Made by a program: the position numbers and the translations under genes
Notes under the pieces: model-generated
Databases searched by the model: none
The model's input: only the letters and a program-made list of their open reading frames with translations
Told to the model about the DNA's origin: nothing
In this document: one piece after another, positions 2,800 to 29,160 of the stretch
How positions within the stretch are numbered: the first letter of the stretch is position 1
How the letters are laid out: every line of letters begins with the position of its first letter
Origin: Phoronis australis
Lineage: Eukaryota > Animalia > Phoronida
Length of the DNA stretch: 64,000 nt
NCBI GenBank assembly: GCA_002633005.1
Contig: NMRA01000790.1
Coordinates: forward strand, 36,835-100,834
Reading direction: 5' to 3'

Positions 2800-5250
2800 A
2801 GCCATTGGTTCTGGAACCATTCTGCTTGCGGAACAAATCCGAAACAGTAACATTGTTCAACTAATTATTGTTAGGATTGTCACGTTGATACTTTCAAGTG
2901 GTATTGAAAATGGGATGCATTTTAACTTTATTGGGCAAAACAAAAACCCCGAAAAACCATTCTGTGTGGAAAATCGTTCCGCATGCGAAACGGTTCCGCA
3001 ACTCACATTTAGGAAATAATTATTGTTAGGGTAGAAATTCTGATACATTCATGTTTATGCTTTTTGCACACTAAGATTTGAATATTTCCTGTCTTGTGTT
3101 AAACTCTACCATGAGCGGTTAAATGGCATAACCAAATGTCAATTTTTTCCGAGTCAGCTTGAGGTAGGTTTCTACAACACAAACCATTCAGCAAGTTCAT
3201 CACTGATTAATTATGGTTCATGTTGACACATTGATCTGTCCATGTGTTATTGACAATATAATGTATTTAAACTTTAATTCGCAAGCATGAATTTAAAAAA
3301 ATGTGAGCTCCACAAAACCATTGTTTGCGGAACGGTTCAGTAACTGTCATATTGACCACCTAATTATTGTCAGGATTGTCAGATTGATACTTTCAAGTGG
3401 CATTGATAATAGAATGCATTTTAAGTTCATTGGGCAAAACCAATACCAAGCAAAACCATTCTGTTTGGGAAAACGCTCCCCATGCGGAATGATTCCGCTT
3501 GCGGAACGGTTCCGCAGCTGTCGCATTGATCAACTAATTACAGTTAGGATTGTCACATCGATACTTTCAGGTGGCATTGATAATGGAATGCATTTTCAGT
3601 TGATTGGTGAAATAAAAACCCCGCAAAACCATTTTGTTTCGGAAATCGCTCCCCAAGCAGAATTTTTCCGCATGCGGAACAGTTCCCCAACTGTCACTTT
3701 TATTAATTAAATATTGTTGGGATAGAAATTCTGATACTTTGATGTTTAATGCTTGTTCCACATTAAGATTCAAATATTTCGTGGCTTGCGTTAAGGTTCT
3801 ACCAAAAGCGGTAAAATGTCATAGACAATATGTCGATTTTTACCCGAGTCTGCTTGAGGTAGGTTTCTGCATCGCAAATCATTCAGCAAGTTCCCCACTG
3901 ATTAACCGTTGTTCATGCTGACACATTGATATTTCCATATGCTATTGAGAATAAAGTATATTTCAACTGAAATGTGCAAGAAAAATTTTTTAAAACTTGT
4001 GAGGATCACAAAAGTATTGTTTGCGGAACGGTTCCGCAACTGTCACTTTTAATAATTCATTATTGTTAGAGTAGAAATTCTGATACTTTTATGTTTAATG
4101 CTTTTTGTACGTTAAGATTCGAATATTTCATGGCTTGTGTTAAGGTTCTACCAAAAGCGGTAAAATAGCATTAACAAGATGTCAATTTTTCGCCCGAGTC
4201 TGCTTGAGGTAGGCTTCTTCATCACAAACCATTCAGCAAGTTCCCCACTGATCAATCATTGTTCATGTTGACACATTGATATTTCCATATGCTATTGAGA
4301 ATAGATTATATTTGAACTGAAATGCGCAAGAAAATTTTTTTAAAACTTGTGAGAATCACAAAATTATTGTTTGCGGAACGGTTCCGCATGCAGAACGGTT
4401 CTGCAAACGTCACATTTATTAATTATTGTTAGGGTACATATTCTGATACTTTTATGTTTAATGCTTGTTGTACGTTAAGATTTGAATATTTCATGGCTTG
4501 TGTTAAGGTTCTGCTGCCAAAAGCAGTAAAATGTCATAGACAATATGTCGATTTTTCCCCGAGTCTGCTTGAGGTAGGTTTCTGCATCACAAACCATTCA
4601 GCAAGTTCCCCACTGATGAATCATTGCTCATGTTGACACATTGATATTTCCATATGCTATTGAGAATAGAGTATAGTTCAACTGAAATGTGCAAGAAAAT
4701 TGTTTTAAAACTCGTGAGGATCAAAGAAGTATTGTTTGCGGAACGGTTCCGCATGCGGAACGGTTCTGCAACTGTCACATTGATCAACTAATTACTGTTA
4801 GGATTGTCACATCGATACTTTCAAGTGGCATTGATAATGTAATGTATTTTAAGTTGATTGGTGAAATCATATACCCAGCAAAACCATTCTGTTTGGGAAA
4901 TCGCTCCCCATACAGAACCATTCCGCATGCGGAATGGTTCCGCAACTGTCACATTGATCAAGTAATTATTATTAGGATTGTCACATTGATACTTTCAAGT
5001 GGTATTGATTATGGAATGCATTTTAACTTTATTGCTCATGAGAATTAAAAATTTGCAGAACCGTTCCGCATGTGGAAGCCTTCTGCAACCGTCACATTGA
5101 TTAATATATTATTGAGAGTGGGCACATTATACTCTCAAGTACTATTGAGAATGGAATGTAATTTATGTTTATTGGGCCGGGAGAAAATTAAAAATTTTAG
5201 TCCTGTGCTAAACTTTTCTGTTTGTGGAACTCTTCTGGAACTTTCACATT
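2800..5250. repeat. Complex tandem array of ~190-bp and ~360-bp units delimited by the palindrome TGCGGAAC-N-GTTCCGCA
   Basis: Recurrent units (e.g. near 3700, 4050, 4420 and near 3330, 3500, 4760, 4940) with gcggaacggttccgca at the junctions; an isolated copy near position 200. Confidence 0.8.
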
Positions 5251-6108
5251 GATTTTTAAAAATATTCCCATTCTTACAAATTAATAAGATGTTCCCCGGC
5301 ACAGCAGTCACGATATTCTGCCGACAGATCAAGACTGGGTTAAACAGCCTATACATGTAGCAGTTACGTAAATAGCAATGGTAGTTAAATTTCAGAAGAC
5401 TGGAAATGACTTCTTTATTAAAGACATACTTATGCAGTTTTACAATTGTAAAATGAAGAACCCGTTTATTAGGCAATTATGTGAATGAAGCTCTTATTTC
5501 AAAAATAGAATGGAAGGAAGGGCTGGAAGTGGGAGACAGGATGTTGTGGAAGTGGTAACACGCCATTGTTTAAGAATACTGTCTGATGCTGCAATAAAAC
5601 AGAATCTGTATCAAAGGGTGGTCGATGAAATAATTAGTTTCTATGTTTTTTGGGTGTACGTCGTTGTTGTACTGTGGCGGCAAAGTCAATTGAATTTAAG
5701 CGATTAACGTGTTTCTCAGACTGGAATCGCAAAATACACAGAAGGACCTCCTTTTCCACAACAATACATTCTTTCCTTTTTCATTCTTGTTTTTGGTTTC
5801 GTCCCCGTTAGTATGTACACCCTAATTTTAGCAGTCAGTAACCCCTGTTGAAGAAAGTTTTTTGTTTAGAGGGCATTTGATAATGGATTTTTACAACAAG
5901 AATTGTTAAAGAAAACCTAGAACTTGCAGACTGGATTTTTAGAATATTTTTCCTAACTTACAGTGTGTTATTGCGATGTTGGCGCAGAAATCATGTAATT
6001 ACCGTGAGCTAATATCTGTAAATGCAGCACACTCAGCAACGTCCATTAAAATGACTCCTTATTGATTGTAGATCACCCTGACTTGAGCACCTATTTTGTA
6101 ATTCACAG

Positions 6109-6216
6109 CGCGGTCGTACCCCACTTTTCGAAGCAGCAGGAGCAAGCCTTTATTTCACTGAACCCAACATGAAGTTGCTGCTAGAGCACAAAGCCAACGT
6201 GAATGCAGTGAATAAG
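6109..6216 (+). CDS. Ankyrin-repeat exon A1 (RGRTPLFEAAGASLYFTEPNMKLLLEHKANVNAVNK)
   Basis: ttcacag| acceptor, aag|gtagga donor, 108 nt, phase 0-0; matches the ankyrin consensus G.TPL..AA....KLLL...ANVNA. Confidence 0.85.
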
Positions 6217-9200
6217 GTAGGAAACAGTGGTGTGACAGGATTCAAAGTAAAAATGACATACCAGTCTGTTATTTTGATCGATACTTTTTGTTGACGCCTA
6301 TTATTTCAGGACGTTTGATGTTGTGTACAGTGTAGCGTGCCTTTGTAATTAATGTTGGGAGCATTAACATATTACGCCGTGAGTTGAGGGGGATGAATTT
6401 TGGAAAAGTTGACGATTTTTGAATGAAGGAGGTGGGAGGTTAAATTTATGGTGATGTCATCATGTGGTTTATTAGAACATCTCCATCACAGTACATATGG
6501 TTGGAAAACTGGTACACCTGTAGCAGAATCTGTCAATTTTTCGAAACCTACTGTTTCAAGCTTCAAAAAGTTGGTTATTTTTCACTAGGCTTATCTTATA
6601 AACACAGACAAACGGCAGTTTTACTTCATCACTGCCTATCACTGAGAATATTCATAGTGATGAAAAGCATAAGAGCTGGATTAGTTCTTCCAGCATCAGA
6701 CGCGTTCATGTTTTTCGGGTGATGCGATGTACATTGTGACTTTGTTATGCATATACATGTATGCAATGTTACGACAAAATATAATGTATTTCGTTATTCC
6801 ATTATATGACAGAGTTTTTACTGCGCTCTCACGCTATTCCTCAAGTTTCATTGTTTAATGCCAAGTTTGCTCCACTGATGGCTGCTTCAGTTGAGACTGG
6901 GTTGAGAGTAACAGAAGACGATAGTGTTGTAGCATAGTATTGGCGACATATAAAGAGTTGTTATGAATGATCAACAGTAATATTTCACATTTAATAACAT
7001 TTCGCATTAATTGGAAGTTTCGGACCCAATGAATCTTTACACTGGACTTACTACATGTATTGGTCCAAGACCTTAAATTTCAAACAAGTTGTTAAAGTTG
7101 TAATGCTCAAAGGTTATAATTTTGTGTCATAGTGGAACATTCACTATTTGTATTTTTAACTTGATGAAGTGTAAATGAATTCATAGTGAGGTTTCTTGTG
7201 CAAACAATCCCATGAGTGGTCAACAAAGTTAAACTGCGGTTACTCGGACGTTCCAGGACCACCTTCGGGAGAACATAATGTTGATCTTTTTAGCACATAC
7301 TCTTTGTACGCTATGAACTGTATGTTAGGGATTAGAGAGTGGTTTGCATTTCGACTAGACCAGGGATCCGAGTCTTGCATGCTATCGGCGTGAATGCGAG
7401 CTTCAGCATTAAGTACTGTGTAAGTTCCTAACAACTTTTGAATATTGTATAATCACTATTTTATTCTGCTATTTCTACACATTTTATCATGCTGTTGTTT
7501 CCATGTGGTTAGAGGGTGACCTGAGTGAGTGTAACTTGATTTGACGGTCAGTAGAACACTTGGCAACCAACCGCACTGCATCTTACTTGGTACTGTCACG
7601 CACGGGCAGATGACGATACTTTGTTCGTACACCTGTCAACTTCGACACCTTTGCATTTAATTTAATTGCTAAAACTCGCGTTTCGGGAAAACACGTTTCA
7701 TTGATTTGTGTAAAATCAATGGAAGCTGATTAAAAGTCCACCATCACCACCACCACCACCACCAATGTCCACCGTCATCATTATCACCATCATCATCACA
7801 TCATCAACATCACCGTCATCATCACCATCGCCAACATCATCATCGTCATCATCATGATCATCATCATCATCACATCATCAACATCACCGTCATGATCACC
7901 ATCATCATCATCATCATCATAATCATCATTATCATCATCATCACCGTCATCATCATAATCATCATTATCATCATCATCACCGTCATCATCATAATCATCA
8001 TCATCATCATAATTATGATCTTCATCATCGTCATCACAATCATTATTACCATCATCATCACCACCATCATCATAATCATCATCATCATCATCACCATCAT
8101 CACCACAACACCATCACCGCCCTCACCATCACCATCATCATCATCAGCACCATCATCAATGTATTTTAGGCCGTTGCTTTATTGCCACAAGGCTTCGCTA
8201 ATGCGTTGATTCCTATTTCCATGTTTTGCATGACATCGTTTAGATATTTTGGACCTATTCAAATAACTCTGAAATGGCAAAATTAAAAGCAATAAACATT
8301 TATATTAGTTCAAGTTTTTGTAGCGGGGCAATCCTTGGAGGACATAGGAAATTATCACCTGGCTATAATGTACATGGTCGATATTGATACTTCATAACTC
8401 AGCTGGGGCATACAATAGTACAATTATCACTTTTGATACATGTACATAAGAGCACTAACACAAACTAAATCATTTGAGTCCCTTTGCTTAGGAGCTCCCA
8501 GAATGTTTAGAGATTTTGTGGTATGTAAACCACTGCATAATTTGGAGGTTCAAAATCTAGTATCAATCCAGATATCAGTCTAGGTTTTTATAAAGGGAAA
8601 AATTTCTGTACAGTGTAAGCTCATTTAATTTTCCACACGAAAATCAATTTCAGAACCCCAGTAGTTCAAAAGATCACCACTTCTTAGTCCACAAAATATC
8701 AATTTATTTTAGGCTGTTGCTTAATTGCCACAAATCTTCGTTAATTGCTATTTTCATGTTTAGGGTGACATTGTTTTGACATTTTGGACGTATTCAAATA
8801 AATCTGAAATGCCAAAATTAGAAGCAGTAAGCATTTAACATTATTTGAAGTTAAACGCTGCAATCGGCGAAGCGCTGTCTACAAAACACCAGGTCGATAT
8901 TTATACTTCTCAGCTTCGCTGGGGCATACAGTGGGCGCAACTATGGTCAACGTACACTGGATTAACTCAAACGCATATTTTTGTGATCTTTTCACATGCC
9001 AAAATGCCACGTCGTTACCGGAATGTGAAATAATCCAAGCACTGCAGTTTCTTTAAGTGCGTGATGTGGTGGGGTCCTCCAATTGATGAAATAGCGAACA
9101 ATACATCTCAGCATTTTCGATTGCCTGTGCTGCACTGGGACCATCCTCATCAGAGTTTGAGCTGCATGCTCTGCCCTTCTGTTGTGAAATGCTCTACCTA

Positions 9201-12200
9201 TCTTTCCGACCTTTTGTTGAAGTTAGTGCGCAGCCCATTGCACAATAAAAGTCACTCCATCGTTGGATACCTGATTGCATTTTTTCACAATGGGAAATCA
9301 ATGGATGAATATAAATACCTTAAAGTGATGTGCATAACATTTTCTTTGTTCCGCTGGGCACAGCTTGTTCTGAACCCAGTCTAAGCAAGAGATGATTGTG
9401 GAGAGGATAAAGGAGATTTGGAGAAAGTCTTTTACTGCTTTACATTCATTAAAATCATAACTAATGATTAACATGATTTCTACAGCCAAGCCCAATGTAA
9501 ATTGGGAATTATATTTGAAACAGGCGTGATCACTACAATAATGATTGATCGAAAGCCCCCTCGACCCCTGGAAGCCCGCACACCAAAACCCACTGGCACA
9601 CACCTCTATCCACGACGCTCTTGACCCCCTACCCGCAACCCCCTCCACCCAGTCTACAGAAACTCAACTTGATCTAAATATAGAACAAGCGCTAACTTGC
9701 AGTACGAACTAGTTTGGCTGTGAGCAAGGCTAGTTTTTTCCTGTTTTTCAAACTGAGAGAGTTGATTCGTTAAGTTTTTAAGCCAAAAACAGAAAAAAAA
9801 CAACGGTATCAAATCAAATCAAATCAGAGACCTACTGTACCAACATTACATATCGTATCGTTCCGGGCAGGGTGTAATCGTCTCGTCTGCTCTTCGGAGA
9901 ATTCCAGATTCAAGCTATTTTTGGACATGTGTAATAGGATCACGAATACTTATTTTTTTCAGTTTGAAAAAATATGAAGTGGACTAAAAAGCAATCCAGA
10001 GGTATTTTTAGTATTTTGTTAAGGAGTATACTTCACAAAAATATAATGAAAATGACAAACTATGTGTATACACGTTATTATGCTCTCTCCCTAAATTCAG
10101 TGCAACATGGTCTATAGTAGTCACTGTGGAACTATTTCCCAGGCAGCCTGGAAGCTTTATGAAAACTGTCGTCAAAATACAGCTAGATTGTGTGCTGAGC
10201 CCCCTTAGATCCCGAAATTTCATACAGCCCGGGTAGTTCTCGTCAGCTCGTTCTTAAAGTTAAATCGACACATAAATCTAACGACCGGCGGGGGTGCTTG
10301 CAAAATCAAGAAGTCAACCGATACTCCTCTTTGTCGGTGAAGCCGTCTTCAAGTGAAATACAGCTTTGCACCAAACATAACTACTTCCGTGACAACGACA
10401 GTGAACTCACAATCCGCCATTTCTTACGCCACTTTCTGTCTTTACCACCAGTCTAGAGCCAGAGCAGATTTGTGTAGCCAAGTCTTATGCTAAAGTCACC
10501 CAATGGCGATGTATCAAAATTAGGAAATGTGAAGAAAGAGTAAGCATACCTCAATCTCAGCAGGCCGTGGGGTCAAAGGGGTTGTTGGTCATGGTTCATG
10601 GGGTTGTGGAATGTGGAGGTCGAGGGGTGTTGCAATAATCCGCATAATGTCCTAGGTGCCACTTTGGATCTGGCAACTATGAATACTACGTACTTACTCT
10701 TTTAGATTACAATCGACACTTAGTAACCTAGTGTCAGAGATTTTATTACCAGCTTCTTTGAGTTTGGGGAGAAGGGAGCGAAGATAGGGGGCAATGATAA
10801 TCGCTTCGAATTAGCAGCAGTGATTTTTAAGATACTACTCATTTTATTTGTCGCTTAACGTTGACCCTCTTCATTGTTTGAATGGCAAATTTAGTTAACA
10901 ACAAAAGAAGAAAAGGGACATAGGACCCATTGCAACTACTGTCTATTTGTTGAGAGACCTCAACTGCTATTGGATAGCCTGCTTGAGCAACACAATTGAA
11001 CAAAATGACTTGCGTGCACCATTCCTTACCATAGTGGCTTTAATATCCCCGATAATGAAGCAAGAAGTGAACTTCTAGAATCACCTTGATTTTTGCAGAA
11101 GATGAAAAACGAATTGTGCGAAACATCTATAGACGATCAAATTAAACAAATGTATAGTGAATCAAATAAGTCACGGGAATAATTAGTGAAAGAAACGCAC
11201 TGTGAGCCAAAACGATATGTCAGTGGAAAGAATAATTTGACACTCAATATTTTAAGAAAACTGTTTGTTAATACTATTTAATAAAAGATTGGTTTAATGG
11301 GAAGTCAACGCAAATATCCTGTATGAAGTCATGGCGGATTCAGAAAAAAAACACATACCATCGTTGACAGAATTTCACCCTGAATGCAATGTTGGTGAAG
11401 GTTTCGAGTGAAAATGAACCGGCAGTGCTACTGTGCTCATATATATTCAGTTGTTTAAAAACATGGTAAATATCCAATACAAGGCAAAATTCATCAAGTG
11501 AAGACCTTACACTGTATGTATCATTTCCCATTCCCATTATGTGTTTTCTCTCATTGCATGAAACATACCTGCTTTTGATATTCTAAAATTGCTGCTTTCG
11601 GTATGCAAAAACGTGACATTTTCTTCATAAACATTGAAAGCCTATCCATAAGTCCAAAGCGGTTACTTGTGTATGAGAGTCACACTAAGGTCACATACAC
11701 AAAGTTTTAAGCTGAGTCTGAAAGATGACCTCTAGAGATATGTTCTTATTTCTTTTCATTTTCTCGGGAAATAGTCCTTAATAGATAATTTCTGTAGATA
11801 CATATAGTGACTACCACATGTAGGCCTACATGTAGTATGCTTACCGCATGCTGATGATATTGCAGATATTGCAAGTGCACCAAGACAGTTATAACAACGA
11901 AAAAATTGATGAAACGAAATTATGAGGTTCAGAAACTGGGATCCTCTAGAGAGCGTTAAAAGTTGTCACATAATCTCTAAATTGTTTTTAAGATGAGCTC
12001 GAAACAGCAACCTGGGGGACTCATGCTCAACATTTTTTAGGGGCCCAGCATATAGTGAATAATATCGAAGAGTTTCTCTCTATACTAAAATTATGTGCTT
12101 TGCAAAAATGAGAGACAGAGGGAGAGGTAGAGGGAGAGGAAGAAGGAAAGGGAGATATTTGTACTTGCAAGAGAACTTCTTTCAAGCAAGTCTAATTCAA

Positions 12201-15200
12201 CGATAAGCAAATATTTTCTTGATTTGCCGCGCAACACGTCTAGTCCCGCTGTCTAATTCGCACATGAGACTTCCAAAACTCATAACACCAAGTGGAGACA
12301 ACTTCGATTCATAGGTATTAATGTGTGTAACGTTAAGTAAGTATGGATATGTATCGTATATATGTATATAACCCCTTCACAGAGGACCAACATACAGCAG
12401 AGTGAAATACATACACAAAACGTACCGAGAGTGGCATAGATGAATTCTTTGCGGACATTATTCTGCTTATCAAGCGACACAAAACGAAATGAACAAACTT
12501 GACATTTCCTCGGTTTTTAGGCACTTGCATTTACCCATTCAACTATAAAAACCGCTGTCGGGCGATTAGGGCACCTTTCATTCAACAAAAAACGCTATCT
12601 GTACATGTTTGTGTTTTGCAGGGAACATTTCATCTTTAAGAGTGACTCCATATAAAAACCAACAGCTAGAGTCTATATCCAAAATGACAGATTTTTTTAA
12701 ACTTAGCACATTAGTTTGGTTTGTTAAGATGTAGAAAAACCTTACTTTTTAGAATATTCATTTATTATTTCTCTTTTGATGACCTGTAACTACATTTTGC
12801 GTCAAAATTTAGCGTCGAAGTAGGCGTGTTTGAATGCATTTTACTAAGGCGTATGGTAAGGTCAACACAATTGATTGATGCGAATTGAAAGGGTAATGGG
12901 TGAATAATTTAATGGCATAACTTTCAAAATCCATTTTTAAATATGTATGTCTTGATTTTGTAAGGCAAAAATGGCTATGTTGCAGGTTTTCGCTGAAGCC
13001 AGTTTCGGCCAAATTTGGAACTCTGTAGCAGCCATAACGCACCTTTCCAGAAATTGACCTTATAATAATTTGTTCAGTCATTCCTAACCTGTTCATAATC
13101 TAAAATAAAAAATCTTGCCTCTACAGTAGTTTGTGCCTACGAAGCATTACAATCTGTCCTATTTGCATGTTCTCAGTTGTCTCTGCAACCGATAGAGGGC
13201 TCTTGGAACATATAATTAGCTTGCAAAACACGACAGAAAAACCTTGTATTTTGAAGAAAAGGCATACAGCATTACTAAATACCATTCACTGAAAACGACA
13301 TTGATGATTATTGCTTATTACAAAAATATGTACGTAAATCTACTGGCATGCGTGCTTCTTAATGATAGATGACACAGTAACACGAACCGTAACACGAGGA
13401 CCTTGCTTTAATTCAAGACTTCGCGAGATATTGCCCTGCATTTTAAATGTGAACACGTGGTTTTGGATAAATTTTAGAGAGGTTCTAGTGTTACTGAACT
13501 CATCGCTGCCTTACTCTTGTTTTCTATCTGCCTTGTTCAAGCCACAGGCAAAGGAAGGCACCCAAGCTGGATATGGCCCCCTGTTTAGAGCAAAAAATCC
13601 TTCAACTCGTCAATAGTCATTGTAACTTTGAGTTCATATTGTAATGTCCCTGCTGGTTGCTACAAATTTTAGTCGCCACCAGTCGCCATAAATCTGGTGT
13701 TCCCCCCACTCACCGGGCACGCTAACGCTCAATATTTCTGACATTGTCATCATCAGTGGTATAAAAAGGCTGAAACGTTCCCAGTCAATAGAAAATAATT
13801 CACGAGAGACAATTTTATTAATGACTCACTCATGACAGACACGAAGTAAACAGAAGTAACGGTCTCGACTTCATAGCAAACACACTGAGTGACTGACTCT
13901 GTGGCGTAGCAAGGGGTGGTCAGTGGGGCCCAAGGTGCTCGCTATGCCACTGGACTGTCTAGTGTAATTGCATCTCAACTGCAAACTATAATTAACTACG
14001 ATAATACATATAACATATGACGAGCACGGTAAAACTCAAATTTTGATAAAAACAAGCTACTATTAACATATCGATATCTCTGTTCCTCTTTCACTCTCAT
14101 AACTGCTTTTAATTCTGTACAGCCACATTTCCACCCTCGGCTACTAGGACACATTTTGCCCCTGACGTGGCCACCACAATTTCACAATAGACCAGCACCT
14201 GGCAATCCTCAACCACTGCCTCTCACCTAATTTGCACTCGGCCGCCACTGATTTCTGCCCCCTGATGCTACCCATTTGACTCAAGTTGCAACTTACACTT
14301 GTTTCGGCCATGGACCATTCTGTCTCTCACAACCAAACACTAAGGCCCTGGCCACTATTCATTTGGGCCTCAGCAGCCAGTCATTCAGCCCCTGGCCAGC
14401 ATCCATACTGACTTGAACTCTTCCTAGCTACCACTCATTCTCCTTCAGATGCCACCCACTTGTTTCAATTCATCCAAACCCTTATGATGTCGATATTTAT
14501 TTGTGTTTCTAACAGATCACTAATTGTTAAAATGATACCAATACCTAAGAATGAACACATCTTAAGATTTTTCATAACAAGATAATCCAACTAATAACTA
14601 AACTTCAACTTTTGTGCACTCTCAAGCACAGCTACAGACACGTGACAATATATGTACTTCCACTTTTAACTTTCCTGCCCATTTGGTTAAAAAACTTTCG
14701 TAAAAGTATCCTATAAGTTATTACCATATAGTTACTTGAGCTGAGCTGTAGATATTGTCCATTTTATAATTCCGAGTTTTGTTCTAAATTCCCTCACTGA
14801 TCGATGCGAGTGAAACAAAATTAACAATCCAAAACTGCTACAAACCAGCTGCTGACCTTCACCAACCAGTCATAATTACCAGCAACTACACAAGACAAAG
14901 AAAGCACCAATTTCAAGAGCTTCCCATATCTTTGACTGGTTGTTATGCTACAAAACTAGGCTAAACGTTGAGCTCATTTACCACTTCATTCAGTAAATCT
15001 GACGACGTAACAGCATCTTCAGCAGAAATAGAATCATCACCAGCATTGCTGCAGACAACCTCAAAAATCCACCAATTTGCTATTCACTAAACATCACAGG
15101 TAAACATTTTCCCAGTGGGTTTTCGTAATGTTTTCTCCATTTTGGCACTTCCGAGGGTGAACGTTTTTATCTGACTTATCTCCTTCATCGAATATGTTCG

Positions 15201-18200
15201 TCATTCGTCTCATCCACACTGTACTCTGAGGCTGCGTCAATTGACGCTCCGGTTCTTGTATCTGAAAGCATTTCTGACCACTGTCGTGCGATGTGGTCAT
15301 ACGTGGTATTCCTCAGTAAATGTTCGGTGTGGTTATCTAATTCTGCGTCTGTAGCAAAAAAATCGACCAACCTTGCTGGGTACAAGGGAACTTTTGTTGA
15401 GGCTCTTCACTAGATGCAATGCCAACCTTAACTCTTCGTGTTGAAAACCCGCCATGTCTAGAGATGTGTATTTTAGAAAAATAGGTTTCCCATTTTCTCA
15501 GTATTTGTAAGAAATTACCGTCACCTACATGGAATGATTTCCACACGCAAATTCCTTGGGTGGAATAGTGGGAATTGGGGAATGTGCTTATACCAGGAAC
15601 TGAGTGTTTCGGAAAAGACTTTGTTGCATTGACTGAATATGCATACACATACATGTAACATCCCTTCACACGGCCACTGGAAAGTAATGCATCTTTCAAA
15701 TCCAGAAAGTTTATGATATTGTTATCTTCGGCTACAAAGTACTTCGCATGTTGTTTGAGTGGAGCAGTCTTGCGATCACAGAGATTCTTTCCATTCTGAC
15801 TGTCACTAAAGTCATATCTCGAAACAGAAATGCCGGTAGAATGTGACAAGGCAGGAGGAGAGGATCAGAGTGGTAACATCCAGCATAACCTGACTCTTCC
15901 ATCACTGGTCCTGTTCAATCAGAAATTCACCGACTCGGGGTAGTACGAATCCGTACTCTGGCACAGGCCTTGCTTTGTGAGGTACTTTCCTGTATTTCAA
16001 ATGTTCAGTGGTGTCTTTGACATGACTCACTAAAGCCCAAAGCTTTTGTGATAGTATTTTTTGCAGAATAAACTCTAAAGGGACATGAAGTTTGTTCAAA
16101 TGGTCTGTAAACTCTGCTCGTCATTTCCAAACCATTAAAATAAACAGTTTTGCAAGACAATTTTCACTAAAGTGTAAACTTGAGGCAAGATTTTTTATTG
16201 CTCAGTCATCAAGACTAACTCTTTAACTGTATGTTCTAAACGTCCCATAAGGCTACAAGGTGTTTTATGGCATTAAGAAGGTCACAAAAACGGCCACTAA
16301 ATTAGCCCCAAAATGTGGTTTGGGGATTATCTCCCCTGTCTAGCACAACTCTCAGATTTTAATAAATGGCACAAAATTATGCAAGGTATACGTTGGTTAT
16401 TTCAGCCACCAAAATATAGTTTTTGATCTATTTTGTATGTTACTCAATTTTGTTGCTGAAAACAATACGATTTTTGAGACGGCTAATATGCCCAATTGTG
16501 CCACTTTGTGTTCTCATGCTCCAACGGCGAAATTAGGGGTTATTGAGTGCACAGAAATTGGCATTTGGGTTTTTGTTAGGATGCCTACCCATGTACAAAA
16601 ATTAAATTGTTTTGCATTTTGACTTATAGACTGATTTTTGAAAATCTACTGTTTTTTATATGGACTGCCTCTTAACTGATTTGGCTTGGACCCAGATGTC
16701 CAGCTTTGTACCCTCATGACCTGCTTTTAATCCAATTGTCCCGTGCTTTCGTTCTTGAACGTTGACCGTGACAGCTACGCAATAGGTGTCCAAAATAAAA
16801 ATGTCTCTTGTAATAAATATTGTTTTCAAGAGTCCACTTTCTTTAGTACATTGCAATCAAAAAATTAAGTTTTGTTCCACTGGGTCTTGTTTACGCTAGC
16901 ATGCACTACATACATCAGGATCAAAAACATATATTTTCTGATGGAATTAGTTGATTTCTAAGCTTTTTTGAAATACCTGCACTACAAATAGCGTGATGAT
17001 TTATTCACATTACACGTACCTTTCAAAACTACGTGATGGATTCCGCACACTTTCTGTTGTTTAGAAATACTTTAATTCCAAATTCAGGATAGAATCTTGC
17101 AACAGATTATGGTATTTTTCGTAAATATTACTGCATTAAGAATATAATATGGTGTCAAACCGCTCCAAAATGCAATTAGTTATAACATATTAACATGTAT
17201 AATTTTGGATGAATGCCTGACTAAATCATCCATAGCAATGTGACGGATTTATTTTCTTAATCGCTTGTGTTTGTAGGGTAGACATCTTTTGAATCAGGTG
17301 TAATGGCTTTGCTGTTTATTTTTATAAGACCTTTCTGGTTTATTTCCAATTTTATGTTAATATTTCTCGCTGCTATTTTTCATATTTTGGCAACACTCTT
17401 GGTTTTTAGAAATAATAAAAAATAATTTAGTCTCGTACTCAAAATGATAATTTATGAATTAATTTTTGCTTCTGGTATAATCGTCAAAAATGACTATGGG
17501 CTTTCTTGTGATGTGGCAATTTGGTTGAAAAATGATGGAGTTGCAAAAAGTTTTAATGCCACACACAGGAGCAAAGGAATGCAAACAACTCTCACGCAGG
17601 CGCAGCGTGCAACCTCAGCGGCTGTGAGATTGGGGTTGGCATTTCAGGGAAAATTTTCTTTGTATTGCAGTAGCACTATTATAGCAGATTTGATTTTAAC
17701 ATTTGCGTCTAACCGATGCGTGGGCGTTGGTGACCCTGCCTGTCCAAAAAAACAGGATTTTTCGCTAGTAAATAACCATTTGTATGAAATGTATTCATTT
17801 AGTGGTCCCAGTTAAACAAACGTGCTTTTGATACAATAACGATCTAAGTCCCATTGGATGCATGACGCATTATGCCCTACAAGGCATTTTTGAACTGGCA
17901 ACTATAAATATTTCTTTCCCTAATTGGATTACAATCGACACAGTGTCAGGATTTTAATTTTCAACTTCTTTTCTTGAATTATTTTCATTGCTTGAATGGC
18001 AAAATTCATTCGACTACAACACATTGCAACTACTGTATGTTGAGAGGCCTCAACCTCTACTGGTTAACCTTCTTGAGCAACACAATTGGGCAACTTGACT
18101 TACATATACATGTAAGTGGACGTCCAATTACCAGAATGATTTTTATACCCTCTCAGAAAACAGTGAAATTTAGTAGAGCTGGGCTATTGGTAGCCACTTG

Positions 18201-21200
18201 GGAACTGTTTCCGTGACAACCATAGCGGGCTCACAATGCGCCATTTCAGATCACGTTCTCACGCCATTTTCTGTTTTCAATCACCATACTTGAACCAGAG
18301 CAGGCTCGCTTGTAGGTATGTCTTATGGGAAAGTCACTCAGCGAGGTAATAAGATTATAAAATATGAACAAAACAAAAAAATGCCTAAATTGCCACAGGT
18401 CGTGAGTCGAGGGAGCGTGAATCGGGAGGGGGGGTTGTCTAGGGGTGTTGTGGTCGAGGGGGTTGAGGGGACTTTAGAGAACAATCCGTAGAATACATGT
18501 ATGTCCTAAAATACAAATGTCCGGTCATAATTACGCACAAATTTTGTAATCTTAAATGCAGTCCACACACAGGCCTATCCTAGAACAAGTAAATCCTGAA
18601 ACGAGTTGCCGCTATCGTAGCTTGTAAAATGTGTGGACGCTATTTAAAGGCTAATGCCACCCGATTTAATTAGTCTTTTTTACCGTCTTAATCGGTCTGG
18701 GGCCACATCGGCTCGTACACGGTCGACCTTACCTTGTCGAGAGGTGTCGCGTTAGCCTGTGAGGAAGGTAAGAAAGTCCGCAGCGACGTCAGTGGTTCGT
18801 ATGCAGAGTGAATTCCGCCATGGTGTGGTGTGTCGTTCCTGCCTGTTCGAACTATGAAGCGGCGAGGAAAGCGGGTACATCGTTTTTTCGATTTCCTCGA
18901 GAGCCCGAAATGCTTCGGAAGTGGCTCGCGGCAGTGAAAAATGACAAGTACGGAGTTCATACCAAGTACGAGGCCGTGAAACATCTCCGTGTCTGTGGCC
19001 GACATTTCGTGGACAGTGATTTCACTGACGAATTCCGGCTTGCCAAACAGCTCATGCCAGGGCAGAAAAAGCAACCGAGGCTGAAGTCAGATGCTGTGCC
19101 TAGTGTGTTTGCGTTCGGCAGGCAGGAAGCAAAGAAACGTGGATCAGTTGTTTCCATTATGGTGCAGTTAGCGCACTGACACCATGAGACGGTTTTCGGA
19201 ACTATCCATGTGCTCCATTGTTTGTGCACGTTCACGGCGCCTCTCTAATACTTCTTGATCAGTGTACTCTAGCTGGTTCGAACTGATATCCTGAGAAAAC
19301 TAACGATCTACCTGGGAAGTCTTCGTCAGATGAGTACTCCTCCAAGTCGGGATTGCGAGTTGCCATGTTGACGTTTATTACTAAGCGTTCTGTTTCAAAA
19401 TGAATTATTCTCACCCTAACCAATACTTATATATAAAACTGAAAGAAAGTGTGTCCCATTAGATGCAATTTGTAATGCCTTTGGAGTGTTCGTGAGTGCA
19501 AATGATTTGAGAAGCCAGCAATGAATAAATCACTGCGTTACCGGCTTTAGGTGCAATAAAACTAATTTGACCGGACACCGAGGCCGTGTGAGCGCAAGCA
19601 ATTCAGTGTTTGCTGACAGAATCTGTTGTGAAACAATAACTCGATATTCCATCCCACGGCCAGGTGTTAGGGGAATCTTTGTTTACTTATACATTATTCA
19701 AATAATGATTGTCAATGTGCAGCTTCTGCCCTGGCGGTTCTGTGGCCAAACGGGAACCTGAATTCACGGCCCCCGACGAGCAGGCCTTAGTAGATTTGCA
19801 GTTTCGTGGCTTCACCAAAATAATCACGTGCACACTACTTCTTTAGCTCACTAGTATAGTACTTTCTTGACTTCAAGCTTAGTTTCCAACTTTGGCTGGT
19901 TAGTGTTCGTGATGTCTTCAGTCCGGTCGCGACGGGCCTGATTGGGTTCCGAGCCACTGGCCGGGATAACGAGTCAGTCCGGCCGCGACGGGCCTGATCG
20001 GGTTCCGAGACACTGGCCGGGATAACAAGCGTTTTTTGTGTTTAGAACTAAAAACACAAGTCTAAACAACACAGATCTAGGTCCTACTGTCTGTATTTCA
20101 CGGAAAAATACTTAGAATTTATCTCCGAACAGAACAAGAACTCCTGATACGGACCTTGGTAAATTGGACTGCCGAAATTTGTTGGCTACGGTGTGTCCAA
20201 ATATCAATAAATCCGTAACAGTGAAATAAGACAACACGTTTTTATAAGAACTCGGTGTATTTTTAAGGGTTTTACATCGATGTTTGATCATTCATTGGTG
20301 TTAAACGATGAGTTCAAGCGATAAGCTGACACCAGTTACCCGTGTTGTGAACTGCTGAACAGACTGCGTGTGAAACCGATGACGTCAGTGGAAAATTTCA
20401 TCACCTCCGTCTGCCGTCAGGTGTCAGGTAACGCAACCGTACGTGCCGCTATCGAGGAGAACTACTCGATCTAAATTGATACAAATTAGGTTGTTTTTTG
20501 GGTGGCATGCTCCTTTAAACTGTCTAATAAATTACCTCGCTACTTACTCCACGTTTTCGATGTAGGGTAACTAATGCTCCTACGCCGCTTTTAATCGTTT
20601 TGAGGTCGCAAACTATGGTAAAACGTAAGTAATTATTAGTTTCGTATTCTTGTCAGCTGTCCATTGTCATGCACAGTGCGACAACTCAGGTTCCGCCTTA
20701 CCGTTGTTATCGAAAATCTGCGTGAATCTGTTTCTTCTCGGCTTAAAAGTCGGATCAGTTGCACTTGTGCAAATTATTATGGAATATACTGAGTGCAGGT
20801 GAGACTGTATGATCAGCAGATTTTGATACACTTTAAAACGTCAAAGTTTTCATCACGTCGTTATTCTGTTTTTTTAAAGTAAAGACATGCCAACGAAAGG
20901 ATATAGCGCAAGTTATCTACAGTAACTGTGGTCCTAAAATCAGAACATCTCATTCACACGAAAGTTCTCGAGAAATTTGCAGTGCCATTCTATGTGAACT
21001 ACCCATGTTGCGCATACTGTATATTCGTTCATACCATTAGTCATCCGTATTCTTCGGAGACCCAATTGCCCCATGGGTAATGCAATGGCACATGAGAGAA
21101 ATGCGAGAAATAAATTTTACTCGAGAATGCGTTGGATTGTTTTGCTCTATTATGTCTTACATCAGTCACAAATTCAGTGAGGTTCACCTTCTTTCCTCTC

Positions 21201-24200
21201 GTTCAAGTTATTATTTCCATCAAGTGTACTAAAATTACACGTGTAGGTCATGTAACCTCACTTAAATGTGCAGTGATTGCTGCAATTTTTTCAATAGTAC
21301 ATCTAGGTTATAATTCTGTAAAAAATTACTAAACTTCCAAGGAGTTTTGTTCAACGGAGTTGAAATCTTTAATTGTTAATTGCCTCTTCTCCAAGTCTGT
21401 TTTGAGTAGTGTTCATTACAACGGTTTAAACATGTAATTGCCAAGGATTATGTAACTTGTAGATAGCACGATTAAAGTATTGGATTTGGGACTGCATTGA
21501 TCGAGATCACGTGTACATTTTGGATCTTGGCCACACGTCAACATGTTGAAGTGAGGACCTTGTACGGTTTCAGATGTGTCAACAGTTTTTGTTGAATCCA
21601 CAATTTTTACATCAGTATGGGGCGTGCCATTTAGAAAATTAGGACTTTTCGAGTACCATGGGTCATGTTTTTAGCCTTCTAGTGTGAAATCAATCATAGA
21701 TATTTTACGATTTGTATGCAGCAGTGAATCTATGTTTGATGCAAGGGTCCCCTACATTGGGCAATTGCTAATAACCTGCAATCCGTGCAAAAAACGAGCT
21801 TTTTCCTTAAAACATTTACCGCTACAAAATTTGTGACAATTAGTTCTTCTCATCCCGCATGAGAATTGTACACGTATTACAAGCTGAAGGCGTGAACGTA
21901 TCACGAAGCAAAGCCATTCTCTAAGGGCATTACTGACCATTTGATGAGGAGGGACCTTACAAAAGAAAGCATGGACAATACATGGGAATGATGGAGTTGT
22001 GTGCATCATTGCAAATATTTATAGCGAGAGTAAAGTTAATAAAACTTTCGCGTTCAACTCCCAACAAGACAAGGACGTTCTGTAACATGATCTGAAGAGA
22101 TTACAAAATAAATGTTCCGTCCTTGACATTATTGTGCGCCTTTTTATTCCTTCCACGTCCGTCTTATCCCAAGTCTATGCCCATATTACATGATGCACGT
22201 TTCGCTGAAATCTGCCGTTGTTTTCAAATAAACCATCCCGCCGAGAAACTGTTCGTCATGAAGTCTGAACACTATGGGTTACATTATTAGCTTAGAGATT
22301 TTCATTTTGAGAATTTTTAAATAGCATATTTATACGTGATATCAGACCTAATTAACATTTTAAATGTTGAAAACCGATAATAAGCCTGATTTTAAAGGTT
22401 AAGAAGATAGCTTGCTTGAATATAACCCTACTTCATTGATATATTCAAATTAAAAAGTGTTGAACATTAGTTGCACATTTGGCTCTCGACTGTGAAGTAT
22501 CAAAGACAGATGACGACGGTATCGTAAAATTCGTATGAAATTCAATCCGGAAATTTTATCGACAATATTCTCATTCTTACAAATTAACAAGAGGTCCCAC
22601 GACAGATCAAAAATGGGATAAACAATCTAAACATGTAGCAGTTACGTTATTAGCAATGGTAGGTAAATTTCAGCAAACTTGAAATGACTTCTTCATTACT
22701 GTTTTTTGGTATTGTGACGTACTTTTGCAGTGAAGCCTTATTTTTTCAAAAAAAGTGATGGGAATATGGGGCTGAAAGTGAGATGCAGGATGTTGTGAAA
22801 GTGGCAACACGCCATTGTTTAAGAATACTGATACTGTAATAAAACAGAAGCTGTATCAAATGGTTGTTGGTGGAAAATGAAATTTCTATATTTTTTGGGC
22901 GTACGTTGTTATAGTACTGTGGCGGCGAAGTCAAATCAATTTAAGCGATTAACTAACTTCTCAGATTGGAATCGCAAAGTGCAAAGAAGGTCACCCGTTT
23001 CTAAAACAACCCAATCCTTCCTACATGTAATTCATTGTTGTTTTTGGTTTCGTCCTCGTCAGATATTACATCCTACACTTAGCAATCAGTAACACCTGTT
23101 GAAGAAATTTTTCCTTTAGAAGGTGTTTTATTTGTGATTTTTTGCAAAATAAATTGTTTAAGCAAACCTATAACTAGCACATTGGAATTTTTATGAATAT
23201 GTTTGCTAACTTACTGTGTTCTATTGCGATGTTGGCGCAGGAATCGAGTAAATACCGTGAGCTAATATCTGTAAATGCAGCACACCCAGCAACGTCCATT
23301 AAAATGACTCCTTATTGATTGTAGTTCACCCTGACTCAATACCTATTTTCTAATTCACAGAATGGTTGTACCCCACTTCACGCAGCAGCACCAGAGAAAC
23401 CATTCCTGTATTACTACCCAGAACGGGTAAAGTTGCTTCTAGATCACAAAGCTAACGTGAATGCAGTGGATAAGGTAGGAAACAGGTAGTGATGTGACAG
23501 GATTCAAACTAAAAACGACATACCAATCAGCCTGTTATATTTATCAATACTTTTTGTAGACATCAATTATTTTAAGACGCTCTATATTGCTGCACAGTAT
23601 AGTATGCCTTTGTACTTAATATTGGGAGCATTACTATATTACATCATCAGTTTAGATAAGTTTTTGAATGATGGAGGTGGGAGGTTAAATTTATTGTGAC
23701 GTCATCATGTGGTTTATTGGAATATCTCCATCACAGTATATACCATTGGGAAACTGGTTCACCTATAGCAGAATCACTGCTTTTTCAAGCTTGGAATATT
23801 TGGTTATGTTTCACTAGGCTTACCTTATAAACTTGCGTTCAGACAAACGATAGATTTACTTCATCACTGCCTATCACTGGAAATAATCACAGTGATGAAA
23901 AGCATAAGGGCTGGATCAGTTCTTCCAGCGTCAGTCAGACGCGTTCATGTTTTTCAGGTGATGGGATGTCCATTGTGAGCTTGTTATGCATATATATGTA
24001 TGCAGTGGTACGACAAAATATAATGTGTTTCGTTATTCCATTACATGACAGAGTTTTTTACTGTGCTCTGATACTAGTCCTCAAGTTTCATTGTTTAATG
24101 CCAAGTTTGCTCACCTGATGGCTGCTTCAGTGGAGACTGGGTTGAGAGTAACATAAGACAATAGTGTTTTAGCATAGTATTTGCGACATAGAAAGAGTTG

Positions 24201-27200
24201 TTATAAATGATCAACAGTAATATTTCACATATACATGTAATAACATTTCGCATTAATTGGAAATTTCGGTCACAATGGATCTTAACATATGCGTTACTAT
24301 TGGTCCAAAGCCTCAAAGTTCAAACAAGCTGTTCAAGTTGAAATGCTCAAAAGCATAATTTTGCGTCATAGTGGAACATTCACTATTTGTATTTTTAACT
24401 TGATTAAAAGTAAATGAATTCATAGTGGGTTTTCTTGAGCAAACAATCCTATGTGTGGTCAACAAAGTTAAACTGCTGTTATTCGGACGCTGCAGGACCA
24501 CCTTCGTCATATAATGTTGACCTTTTTAGCACATACTCTTTTTACACTATGAAGTGTTCATGTATGTTAGGGATTAGGGAGTGGTTTGTATTTCGACTAA
24601 ACCAGGGATCCGAGTCTTGCATGCTATCAGCGTGAATGCAAGCCTCAGCATTAAGTACAGTGTATGTTCCTAACAACTTTTGAATATTGAATATTCACTA
24701 TTTCATTCTGCTATTTCTACACATTTTATCATGCTGTCGTTTCCATGTGGTTAAAGGGTGACCTGAGTGAGTGTTGTAATGTAACTTGATTATAATGTCA
24801 GTGGAACACTGGGCAACCCATAGCACTGCATCTTACTTAGTATTGTCACGCACTTGGGGAACTGTGTCCGTGACAACGATAGCGGGCACACAATGCGCCA
24901 TTTCAGATCACGTTCTCACTCATTTTCTGTCTTCAATCACCAGACCTGAGCCAGAGCAGGCTAGCCTGTAGGTATGTCTTATTGGAAAGTCACTCAGCGA
25001 GGTAATAAGATTATGAAATATGAACAAAGTGTAAAAAATGCCTGAACTGCCACAGGTCCGTGAGTCGAGGAGGGCATGAATCGGGGAGGGGGTTGTCTAG
25101 GAGTGTTGTGGTCGAGGGGATGAGGTGGCTTTAGAACAATCCGTAGAATAAATGTACAGCACACATCACGAATTTTTGGCCGACCGGTCGGAAATTGGTC
25201 GACGACCGGCCGTCGACCGGTCGGCAAATTAGCCGACCGGTCGGCTAAAAATTAGCCGACCGGCAGCCGCCCGCAGTGCCGACTCATAAAGCGACCCCAC
25301 AGCCGACCCTTCAGCCGACCCTTTAGCCAACCGGCCATCAGGCGACCAGCTGGTCGGCTGCTATTGTTAGGCTAGAGTAGCAGTTGCGTAATAGGTTGTC
25401 AGGCTCATACCACTTTGCGTGTCGATGCATATTCGTCTTAGCACAGGGTCAAATAAATTAACCTAGTTTTGCTGTCTCGGTNNNNNNNNNNNNNNNNNNN
25501 NNNNNNNNNNNNNNNNNNNNNNNNNNNNNNNNNNNNNNNNNNNNNNNNNNNNNNNNNNNNNNNNNNNNNNNNNNNNNNNNNNNNNNNNNNNNNNNNNNNN
25601 NNNNNNNNNNNNNNNNNNNNNNNNNNNNNNNNNNNNNNNNNNNNNNNNNNNNNNNNNNNNNNNNNNNNNNNNNNNNNNNNNNNNNNNNNNNNNNNNNNNN
25701 NNNNNNNNNNNNNNNNNNNNNNNNNNNNNNNNNNNNNNNNNNNNNNNNNNNNNNNNNNNNNNNNNNNNNNNNNNNNNNNNNNNNNNNNNNNNNNNNNNNN
25801 NNNNNNNNNNNNNNNNNNNNNNNNNNNNNNNNNNNNNNNNNNNNNNNNNNNNNNNNNNNNNNNNNNNNNNNNNNNNNNNNNNNNNNNNNNNNNNNNNNNN
25901 NNNNNNNNNNNNNNNNNNNNNNNNNNNNNNNNNNNNNNNNNNNNNNNNNNNNNNNNNNNNNNNNNNNNNNNNNNNNNNNNNNNNNNNNNNNNNNNNNNNN
26001 NNNNNNNNNNNNNNNNNNNNNNNNNNNNNNNNNNNNNNNNNNNNNNNNNNNNNNNNNNNNNNNNNNNNNNNNNNNNNNNNNNNNNNNNNNNNNNNNNNNN
26101 NNNNNNNNNNNNNNNNNNNNNNNNNNNNNNNNNNNNNNNNNNNNNNNNNNNNNNNNNNNNNNNNNNNNNNNNNNNNNNNNNNNNNNNNNNNNNNNNNNNN
26201 NNNNNNNNNNNNNNNNNNNNNNNNNNNNNNNNNNNNNNNNNNNNNNNNNNNNNNNNNNNNNNNNNNNNNNNNNNNNNNNNNNNNNNNNNNNNNNNNNNNN
26301 NNNNNNNNNNNNNNNNNNNNNNNNNNNNNNNNNNNNNNNNNNNNNNNNNNNNNNNNNNNNNNNNNNNNNNNNNNNNNNNNNNNNNNNNCCCCCCTAAATC
26401 CGCCTATGCACTCCAACAAACAAAAATAGGCACATATCTTGAATTTGCACAAAACTAGAAAGGAAAATGTCAAAAGTAAAGTCGAGCTCGATTTCAAGTG
26501 TAAAGATTGTGGCCCGTGTCCTGGTGTTATGTGAGTCACGGACCGCAACGTGACACATGCAATTTTGCACCTTGGATCACGACGAGTCAGGTTGCACATT
26601 CATTATACCATTTGAGCAAGGTTACCAAGAATTTACGTCTTGCGATCGAGTAGATACCGATGTGACTTGTATGATTTGACTATGACAACTGTCACTCAAA
26701 CAGGGGGCATTCAGACGTGGGGTGCCGAAACATTTCCATAAGATTAAAGTGCTTAAGATCACCAATTTCATATGACATAGGCCTACTCAACAACAACCCC
26801 ACCACTCGATCATATGTCAAATTAGAACATCCGCAAACACTAACTGACGACACAGGACAACCAATCACAGTTGTAGTCATCCCTCATTGCGTTCATTGTA
26901 AAAAGTCGTCAGGTATTGCTGCTCGTTTTCTCAGGTTTGTGGTATGACAAAAAATGGCGATCCGAGGTGTTTGTTATTGCTGTGGCACGTCGTGACTCTT
27001 TTCACTTTTACGCGCAACAACAAATCGCGGATATGGCACACGTTTGTACCAGAAACTCGCGCGTTAGTAACATGCGGACACACTGGCTCTGACTGTGTTC
27101 CTACGTCGATCACACTCATGTCCCTGGAGCCAAGAAATTTTAATTTTTCATCTAGGTTTTCGTTCATGGGATATTGAATTCACGGCTGTTTTGCAGTGCT

Positions 27201-29128
27201 ATAAAGAAATTGAAAAAGTAATCACTTGTCAAAACAATTGTAAGTGGCCGTGGAGCACTTTAAAGAGACTGGGCCATCTCCTGTACCTCAATCCAAGTCG
27301 TTTTTATTTCCATTCTTTTCCTGCACGCGACACAGCTTGTCCCAGCTGGAAAGACTGTTTGGAAAGAAAGGTTTCGAAGCACATAATGAACACTGGCAAT
27401 TTATAATGAACATTCACTCTGATCTAAAACGCATACTACACGAGACATAGTCAGGCTTTGTTTGAGTATTCAACCGAAACTAATCTTCAACACGAAGGCT
27501 GTTCCTTTTGTAATACTAACAGAGGTTTGCCGAATATTTTGAAGTTGTTCCAAAATTGGAAATCAGATATATAAATTGTGATTTTCCAACCGTGAGGTAC
27601 AATAGTTCTAGTCAATGTGAAATTCCTACTTTAGACGAGTTTCCATTTGACTTTTCATGTGTATTATGAAACGCGTTTTCTGCAAGTATGTCTCCCGTAT
27701 ATTTCAAAATATTTTACCGCACTATAATATACCGTTCGATGGAATACTAACAACTGTTGCAGTCAACGGTTACTGCATGCGTAAGAAGTCGAATTTAACG
27801 TTAGACACATTCAACTTAAAAAAACAACCGTTAAATATTTCTCTCATTGTTTCGAGATCACTTGTATTTGATGCTATACAAACCTTTCATGCTGCACAAA
27901 CGGAAGTTGTTATAGTGAACTGGTTCAAGTACTTATTCACCTCTTTCACGAACGCGGGGCGCTGCTGTCGTGTTGATCGAAAACGAGGCGCCTTGACAAA
28001 CATGGCANAGTTCTTCCAGCGTCAGACGCGTTCATGTTTTTCAGGTGATGGGATGTCCATTGTGAGCTTGTTATGCATATATATGTATGCAGTGTTACGA
28101 CAAAATATAATGTGTTTCGTTATTCCGTTACATGAGTTTTTTACTGTGCTCTCACTAGTCCTCAAGTTTCATTGTTTAATGCCAAGTTTGCTCACCTGAT
28201 GGCTGCTTCAGTGGAGACTGGGTTGAGAGTAACAGAAGACAATAGTGTTTTAGTATAGTATTTGCGACATAGAAAGAGTTGTTATAAATGATCAACAGTA
28301 ATATTTCACATATAATAACATTTCGCATTAATTGGAAATTTCGGTCACAATGGATCTTAACATATGCGTTACTATTGGTCCAAAGCCTCAAAGTTCAAAC
28401 AAGCTGTTCAAGTTGAAATGCTCAAAACCATAATTTTGCGTCATAGTGGAACATTCACTAGTTGTATTTTTAACCTGATTAAGAGTAAATGAATTCATAG
28501 TGGGTTTTCTTGAGCAAACAATCCTATGTGTGGTCAATAAAGTTAAACTGCTGTTATTCGGACGCTGCAGGACCACCTTCGGCATATAATGTTGACCTTT
28601 TTAGCATATACTCTTTATACACTATGAAGTGTACATGTATGTTAGAGAATAGGGAGCGGTTTGTATTTCGACTTGACCAAGGATCCGAGTCTTGCATGCT
28701 ATCAGCGTGAATGCAAGCCTCGGCATTAAGTACTGTGTATGTTCCTAACAACTTTTGAATATTGAATATTCACTATTTCATTCTGCTATTTCTAAACATT
28801 TTATCATGCTGTTTGTTTCCATGTGGTTAAAGGGTGACCTGAGTGAGTGTTGTAATGTAACTTGATTATAATGTCAGTGGACCACTGGGCAACCCATAGC
28901 ACTGCATCTTACTTAGTATTGTCACGCACGGGCAGTTGACGATACTTTGTTCGTACACCTGTCAACTTACAAATCTTTGCATTTAATTTATTTGCTAAAA
29001 CTCGCGTTTCAGGAAAGCACGTTTCATTAATGTGTGTAAAATCAGTGGAAGCTTATTAAAAGTCCACCATCACCACCACCAATGTCCATCATCATCATTA
29101 TCATCATCATCACATTATCAACAGCACC

Positions 29129-29160
<32 letters not shown>

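Follow-up and report, generated by a model that had tools for sequence, protein, structure and literature searches.

Duplicated ankyrin exons of Phoronis australis carry a hypervariable inter-helix segment and may belong to a sensor array with a predicted FAM111-like protease

How invertebrates diversify their intracellular pathogen sensors beyond the NOD-like receptors (NLRs) is an open question. We examine a 64,000-nucleotide stretch of the phoronid Phoronis australis (assembly GCA_002633005.1, contig NMRA01000790.1, positions 36,835 to 100,834 of the forward strand), referred to here as the window. The window is animal DNA with a G+C content of about 37%, spliceosomal introns and assembly gaps (runs of N). 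A preliminary description had drawn attention to two copies of an ankyrin exon, A1 and A2, proposing that they are hypervariable at ligand-binding positions while their flanking introns stay conserved, and that diversifying selection acts on the recognition surface of an immune receptor. Here we compare the two copies with each other, with their introns and with public reads, and consider what the exons may be part of.

Both copies are intact exons on the forward strand. A1 (6109-6216) has 36 codons (108 bases) and A2 (23361-23474) has 38 (114 bases); each encodes one ankyrin repeat in phase 0-0, is stop-free and lies between the same borders (cag/exon/gtagga) with intact splice sites. A1 extends from repeat position 3 to position 2 of the next repeat, and A1 and A2 exceed the 33-residue consensus by three and five residues, respectively. 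Their Pfam Ank (PF00023) scores of 23.9 and 35.5 bits, like the 31.2 bits of a third exon, A3, described below, are above the cut-off of 21.1, and the two proteins are 57% identical. Each exon is embedded in a duplicated exon-plus-intron unit on the forward strand. The A1 unit (5322-8692) is 81% alike to 22600-24853 and 84-85% alike to 28009-29886, which by sequence similarity are two portions of the A2 unit, resuming past assembly gaps. Homology between the units begins at 5322/22600, and the context upstream of there differs. GNTPLF-like words at 5554 and 22803 were ruled out as exons (profile E about 3).

The contrast between exon and introns is real and rests on one segment. In a global alignment of the 2.3-kb duplicate the introns differ at 300 of 2088 columns (14.4%), compared with 31 of 108 columns for the whole exon (Fisher p=2.5e-4) and 20 of 33 bases (61%; p=2e-9 versus introns) for the 11 codons at 6139-6171 of A1, on the forward strand, which run from the end of helix 1 to the start of helix 2. 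None of 2055 intron windows of 33 columns had 20 or more differences, the maximum being 16. The corresponding segment of A2 occupies 23391-23432 on the same strand. All of the codon differences in the preliminary description are present (codon 1 cgc/aat, codon 3 R/C, codons 7-8 FE/HA), as is its rewritten stretch (GASLYFTEPNM versus PEKPFLYYYPERV, with a 2-codon gap), and its account of the last 15 codons was exact: 4 of 45 bases differ there, two of them silent and the others giving E/D and N/D. When exon and introns are aligned as it had proposed, divergence of the exon does exceed that of the introns, the excess being concentrated in the one segment; for codons 1-10 (7 of 30 bases) the excess over the intron rate is not significant (p=0.19). 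Its view of the flanks needed to be softened. The 130 bases 5' of the exon, thought to be near-identical, are 92% alike (10 of 129 differ), which is conserved beyond the intron average (p=0.027) but not unique, as an equally conserved intron window lies near 7424. The introns overall are less divergent than the segment and are moderately rather than extremely conserved. A decaying pseudo-exon was rejected as the source of this pattern.

Further versions of the segment were found in four of eight listed public runs of the same species label, comprising DNA contigs (X1) and three RNA runs (X5, X6 and X7), of which 18-19 per 100 reads were scanned and mapped onto A1 and A2. The RNA runs come from other samples, and the X1 contigs drop variants. 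Five extra versions were identified, making at least seven with A1 and A2, and the segment is 8 to 14 residues long where its length is measurable. The first has the length of A1, with 13-14 substitutions and no gap, and was found in X5 and X6, with a near-identical counterpart in an X1 contig (depth 23.7). The second is one codon longer than A2 and derives from an X1 contig of depth 158, with a close relative in X7. The other three appear as loose ends of reads before 6172, 6176 and 6186 in X5 and X6 (that at 6176 in X6 only), two of which, as read by hand, seem to be of the canonical length of 8 residues. No stop interrupts the visible part of any of the seven versions, and the measurable lengths keep the frame (three were read by hand from loose ends); exon lengths are 108, 114, 117 and 99 bases. 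Random change would yield a stop in 29-38% of cases, and the absence of stops is therefore weak support. The version set of X7 differs from those of X5 and X6. The conserved intron stretch 5' of A1 (5979-6108, forward strand) is common to A2 and many X1 contigs, several of which, of depth 50-100, collapse at 5969-6083; it had no exact match among metagenome contigs. The difference in depth between the contigs (158 versus 24) was not taken as copy number.

Exons of this type are transcribed and joined in series. RNA was confined to the exon and ran in one direction, sense to the forward strand, on both A1 and A2. Over the constant 3' part of A1 its depth was 24-27 in X5 and X6 and 4 in X7; over the 5' part and segment it was 3, 7 and 0 in X5, X6 and X7, respectively. 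A head-to-tail joint from 6221 back to 6172 was present in six X5 reads and two X6 reads, the exon end was followed by the start of another ankyrin exon in 7 + 5 X5 reads and nine X6 reads, and the end of another ankyrin exon lay upstream of an A-type exon in three X5 reads and seven X6 reads. This upstream exon end had no match in the window. As the reads join ankyrin exons in series, the A1 and A2 types are not cassettes that exclude each other. In addition, three X7 reads splice the end of an A-type exon to A3 (45000-45098, forward strand), a canonical 33-residue repeat in phase 0-0 that is unlike A1 and A2; they carry one mismatch in the 30 bases at 45001-45030.

Two other RNA signals were observed. 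Behind 6217-6219, six X5 and five X6 reads pass from an A-type exon end into a sequence starting with GT, with an in-frame stop four codons on, which could reflect intron retention in another copy or a short transcript with ankyrin alone, a possible decoy. At 20542-20798, just behind a high-copy repeat, divergent sense-strand RNA (5, 5 and 11 reads) precedes a strong donor at 20799, and it is possible that this stretch is the first exon of the A-type gene or of a paralog. A candidate first exon ending at 20798 was not accepted, with no RNA across the donor and an ATG out of frame with A2.

The preliminary description had placed the changes at the target-contacting positions randomised in designed ankyrin repeat proteins (DARPins), and this was half right. 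The ANK-N5C library randomises six positions, 2, 3, 5, 10, 13 and 33 (PMC4308713). In its numbering exon codons 1, 3, 8 and 11 are positions 3, 5, 10 and 13, all four of which vary between A1 and A2 on a consensus-like scaffold, whereas positions 2 and 33 are identical in the two and nearly fixed here. Exon codon 7, the His of TPLH, is altered in A1 only, to Phe. Most of the change falls elsewhere, at positions 13-20 together with 3-6 inserted residues between the two helices, a zone that is largely framework in designed libraries; positions 14-20 are rewritten, up to six residues are inserted, and A2 needs a 5-residue gap against the designed repeats. The known binding face has its helix-1 end where the segment starts, and we infer that the segment may contact a ligand on the rim of the groove.

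Most changes within the segment fall at first or second codon positions. Proportions of nonsynonymous (pN) and silent (pS) differences were obtained as pairwise Nei-Gojobori counts, with the segment picked after the data had been inspected. Over codons 1-21, A1 and A2 had a pN of 0.49 and a pS of 0.28, compared with 0.06 and 0.20 over the 3' codons; for A1 and the depth-23.7 contig, which align without gaps, pN was 0.34 and pS 0.15, with a 3' pN of 0.03. Nonsynonymous change was also compared with intron rates of 0.10, 0.144 and 0.218, the last being the highest in the region. The A1/A2 count for codons 1-21 (22 of 46) was significant at all three rates (p<1e-6 at 0.144 and 8e-5 at 0.218), and that for A1 and the contig (15 of 46) at 0.10 and 0.144 (p=0.0014). 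Over the 3' 15 codons the counts were 2 of 35 and 1 of 35, respectively. The A2 segment also differs sharply from the depth-158 contig, by 16 base changes and one extra codon within 14 codons (pN 0.44), 13 of the 16 being at first or second codon positions and three at third. As aligned, the segment differs by nine letters and four indels (net +3) and the other 355 bases by at most eight letters, about 2% change outside the segment (Fisher 7.6e-6), in a contig rebuilt from the listed differences, with 7 of 17 letters not located. To judge from these sequences, segments that are old and selected, set in young flanks, agree with diversifying or balancing selection accompanied by recombination, the chief competing explanation being conversion at a local hot spot.

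The exons behind A3 point to what the array may be joined to. A profile scan of 3430 six-frame segments of the window found three ankyrin exons (A1, A2 and A3), none of them inverted. With the predicted downstream exons, all on the forward strand, they give a predicted open frame of 516 or 554 residues, measured from A1, with no stop inside it (two models). Two linker exons are predicted, one from its sequence and splice sites (46159-46260, phase 0-0) and one with a Gln/Glu-rich run (46762-46999, acceptor at 46762, 46774 or 46792). Three predicted protease exons follow: 48782-49032 (acceptor at 48782 or 48790, both weak), with a candidate catalytic His at 48999-49001; 49368-49684, with a candidate Asp at 49490-49492 or 49511-49513; and the last, 53844-54173, with a candidate Ser at 53958-53960 (GSSGG) and the stop codon. 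The His, Asp and Ser motifs thus stand in order and in one frame in the predicted model. The His exon aligns with positions 1-25 of Pfam Trypsin_2 (PF13365; E=0.077, 14.2 bits, cut-off 27.6), and the top match of the Asp exon among solved structures is human FAM111A (E=0.0065; five sequences at E up to 10), from which we predict a FAM111-like trypsin-type protease behind the ankyrin exons.

Other searches set bounds on this model. Homologue searches with the protease exons in large collections gave none among 721 and 82 candidates and none among 592 pattern matches; three further matches, to long repetitive surface proteins, were judged spurious. Folding of the protease from a single exon gave a mean predicted local distance difference test (pLDDT) score of 48. 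From A3 to the stop codon of the model, whose 5' end is outside view, Pfam matched neither a NACHT nor an NB-ARC domain, and in the linker exons it matched no ubiquitin-like domain; by eye, the visible part of the model, which is missing its 5' end, has no signal peptide or membrane segment. The model is open with or without a possible extra exon at 48586-48691 (forward strand), which is uncertain, and three of 24 splice combinations were open, all without the 48586 exon. In this region one frame spans 48586-49032 with three stops, and the stretch is either two exons with weak splice sites or one damaged exon that would make this haplotype a pseudogene.

We regard the hypervariable segment as a real feature, and from it and its neighbours we infer a function. 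With moderate confidence, and largely by analogy, we favour a variable ankyrin sensor array joined to the predicted FAM111-like protease and binding foreign proteins. A1 and A2 would be interchangeable one-repeat exons that differ from copy to copy in a rewritten segment between helix 1 and helix 2, and A3 would be spliced on to the protease exons. Units in phase 0 could be gained, lost or exchanged without a frame shift, and copies may arise by their unequal crossing-over, with selection keeping the segments divergent and recombination or conversion keeping the flanks alike. In the array, the rim of the groove would be variable, and A3 would serve as a constant cap. Ligand binding would then bring the protease to its target or cluster it, and the protease would cut the bound target or itself. 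Substrate cleavage by FAM111A needs dimerisation, and its N-terminal region may restrain it (PMC10920703); FAM111A is an antiviral restriction factor, and the two ubiquitin-like domains of vertebrate members are missing from the two invertebrate FAM111-like proteins described (PMC9798293).

Several observations weigh against this sensor array. The exon-only excess of pN over pS is not significant (Fisher p=0.15 for A1/A2, 0.09 for A1 and the contig) because there are few silent sites, and the 15 of 46 nonsynonymous changes between A1 and the X1 contig are not significant at the intron rate of 0.218 (p=0.06). Silent sites of the A1/A2 segment are raised too (pS 0.42-0.82), leaving the alignment near saturation, and the choice of segment followed sight of the data. 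The earlier claim of diversifying selection is supported by nonsynonymous change above the intron rate in codons 1-21, while the exon-only dN/dS is not significantly above 1. The segments of A1 and A2 themselves were in no RNA read (other letters stood at 6127 in 3/3 and 7/7 reads and at 23391 in 4/4, 11/11 and 7/7) and in no X1 contig, which neither shows nor excludes their use. An X7 version on A2 has indels summing to +4 among the differences listed, making its frame doubtful. The link from an A-type exon to A3 consists of three reads in one of three samples, the tandem exons of X5 and X6 may derive from paralogous genes without a protease, and the joints 3' of A3 are predicted from sequence and splice sites. 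The protease match is weak, with Trypsin_2 below the Pfam cut-off and two of the three protease exons without a PDB match. Of the rest of the preliminary interpretation, the variability is borne out by the five further versions in independent DNA and RNA runs, and the DARPin contact mapping fits in part.

Foremost among the alternatives is that A1 lies outside the expressed gene: it could be an orphaned copy or the last part of a paralog next to it, or the assembler could have set a second haplotype in tandem. We consider this a possibility, if a doubtful one, and it is compatible with the sensor array. The absence of its segment from RNA would fit, as would the transposon-rich 17 kb that separate A1 from A2, an assembly with gaps and a 95.5% duplicate across one of them, the Phe that A1 alone has for the His of TPLH, and the sense RNA about 20620-20700, which could mark a start 3' of A1. 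However, A1 has retained its splice sites, frame and constrained 3' codons, its 14% intron divergence and different upstream context (5322/22600) are more than one would expect of an allele, RNA is absent over the candidate donor at 20798, and the A2 segment is equally absent from the same samples.

A different reading of the segment itself is that it is a structurally tolerant inter-helix insertion, drifting freely or a hot spot of indels or conversion, with homogenised flanks and an array that serves as scaffold with no ligand-driven selection. The non-significant exon-only dN/dS and the raised silent sites are in keeping with this, as are the location of most change outside the library-randomised positions and one published ankyrin repeat with a variable inter-helix linker (Notch, PMC8229355). 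Nevertheless, we find it unlikely, since relaxation alone cannot raise nonsynonymous change 2-3x over the intron rate, nor give about 20x over the flanks in the depth-158 contig, and the changes are mostly at first and second codon positions and extend to positions 3, 5 and 10.

If ligands do drive the variation, they could be conspecific rather than pathogen-derived, as in allorecognition, gamete compatibility or the fungal het loci. Version sets differ between samples, deep segment divergence with young flanks fits balancing selection, and fungal repeat receptors of like evolutionary pattern include incompatibility genes (PMC4986451). A role in self/non-self recognition nevertheless appears improbable to us, as the visible part of the model shows neither a signal peptide nor a membrane segment and the nearest protease is an antiviral factor. 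Least credible is a dedicated somatic mechanism diversifying the exons within an individual, by programmed rearrangement or templated conversion: the sharp confinement of change to one segment, the contig depths (158 for one version, 24 for another) and a proposal of this kind for brown-algal receptors (PMC3341825) are outweighed by RNA versions that recur identically across reads and two samples (most loose ends at an agreement of 0.92-1.0), as germline variants would, and by a window in which no exon copy is inverted or has its frame broken.

The sensor array we favour has counterparts elsewhere. The Ectocarpus ROCO genes, with leucine-rich repeats (LRR), and NB-ARC genes, with tetratricopeptide repeats (TPR), likewise have one repeat per phase-0 exon, as spliced in series here, along with duplicated units, variable repeat sequence under diversifying selection and an enzyme module behind the array (PMC3341825, PMC11378527). 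They differ in that the repeats here are ankyrin rather than LRR or TPR, the predicted enzyme is a protease rather than a GTPase or NB-ARC, the host is an animal, the exon lengths are unequal rather than equal, and the inverted non-coding exons known there were not found in the window. Fungal NLRs with conserved ankyrin, TPR or WD repeats (Podospora Pa_3_8560 and the het-e family) share near-identical ankyrin scaffolds with hypervariable positions, probable concerted evolution and differences between individuals (PMC4986451). However, the model here lacks NACHT and NB-ARC, its repeats are separate exons kilobases apart, and the changes cluster between the helices, in a segment whose length varies, where the fungal repeats change at five single positions; the A1/A2 identity of 57% is also below the fungal rule for high internal conservation (>85% between repeats over 100 residues). 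By analogy, the array would work like the Ectocarpus receptors and fungal ankyrin NLRs while being a member of neither, having no NTPase, unequal exon lengths and a protease output.

FAM111A and FAM111B (PDB 8s9l, 8s9k; PMC9798293, PMC10920703) share with the predicted protein a C-terminal trypsin-type domain, the His-Asp-Ser order and no evident signal. Here the ankyrin array and Gln-rich linker replace the PIP box and two ubiquitin-like domains, and the similarity is remote, coming from a sequence match and not a tree. The word 'ankyrin' is absent from the FAM111 review. Conflict systems with variable ankyrin and trypsin modules have been described, in arrangements other than an ankyrin-FAM111 fusion (PMC8195603), and no such fusion was found in the literature searched, which largely excluded subscription papers and supplements. 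Neither was an animal exon-per-repeat hypervariable ankyrin array found there, outside of supplements, although genome papers may list such genes.

If the sensor array is borne out, an exon-by-exon array with a hypervariable insert and a FAM111-like protease would constitute an NTPase-free sensor-effector. It would suggest that FAM111 proteases took on their antiviral role long ago and that this role came to be coupled with variable modules for recognition. The inter-helix segment would be a second site on the ankyrin scaffold that tolerates binding diversity, useful for binder design. More speculatively, the locus might represent a natural library of ankyrin binders, with interchangeable exons, an antibody-loop-like insert of variable length, reassortment by haplotype and splicing, and a link to an antiviral protease of the FAM111 type; such a family of intracellular receptors, diversified in the germline, would be of a kind undescribed in animals.

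The surroundings of the units show further signs of duplication and transposition. Intron pieces of the A unit occur without an exon at 31622-32099 (77-79% alike) and 42930-43185 (89%), and may be dispersed repeats or what is left of lost units. Beside the assembly gaps, 23918-24853 is duplicated at 28009-28929 (95.5%) and 32368-32972 at 35206-35808 (98.5%), probably as a result of the assembler retaining both haplotypes. A transposase-like second frame at 15337-15864 (reverse strand) has no Pfam match, and a THAP domain at 18772-19176 (Pfam E=1.8e-18) is probably the remnant of a P-element-type transposon. Just 5' of the A1 unit, a compound tandem array with periods of 173, 365 and 140 and short inverted motifs occupies 2800-5250.

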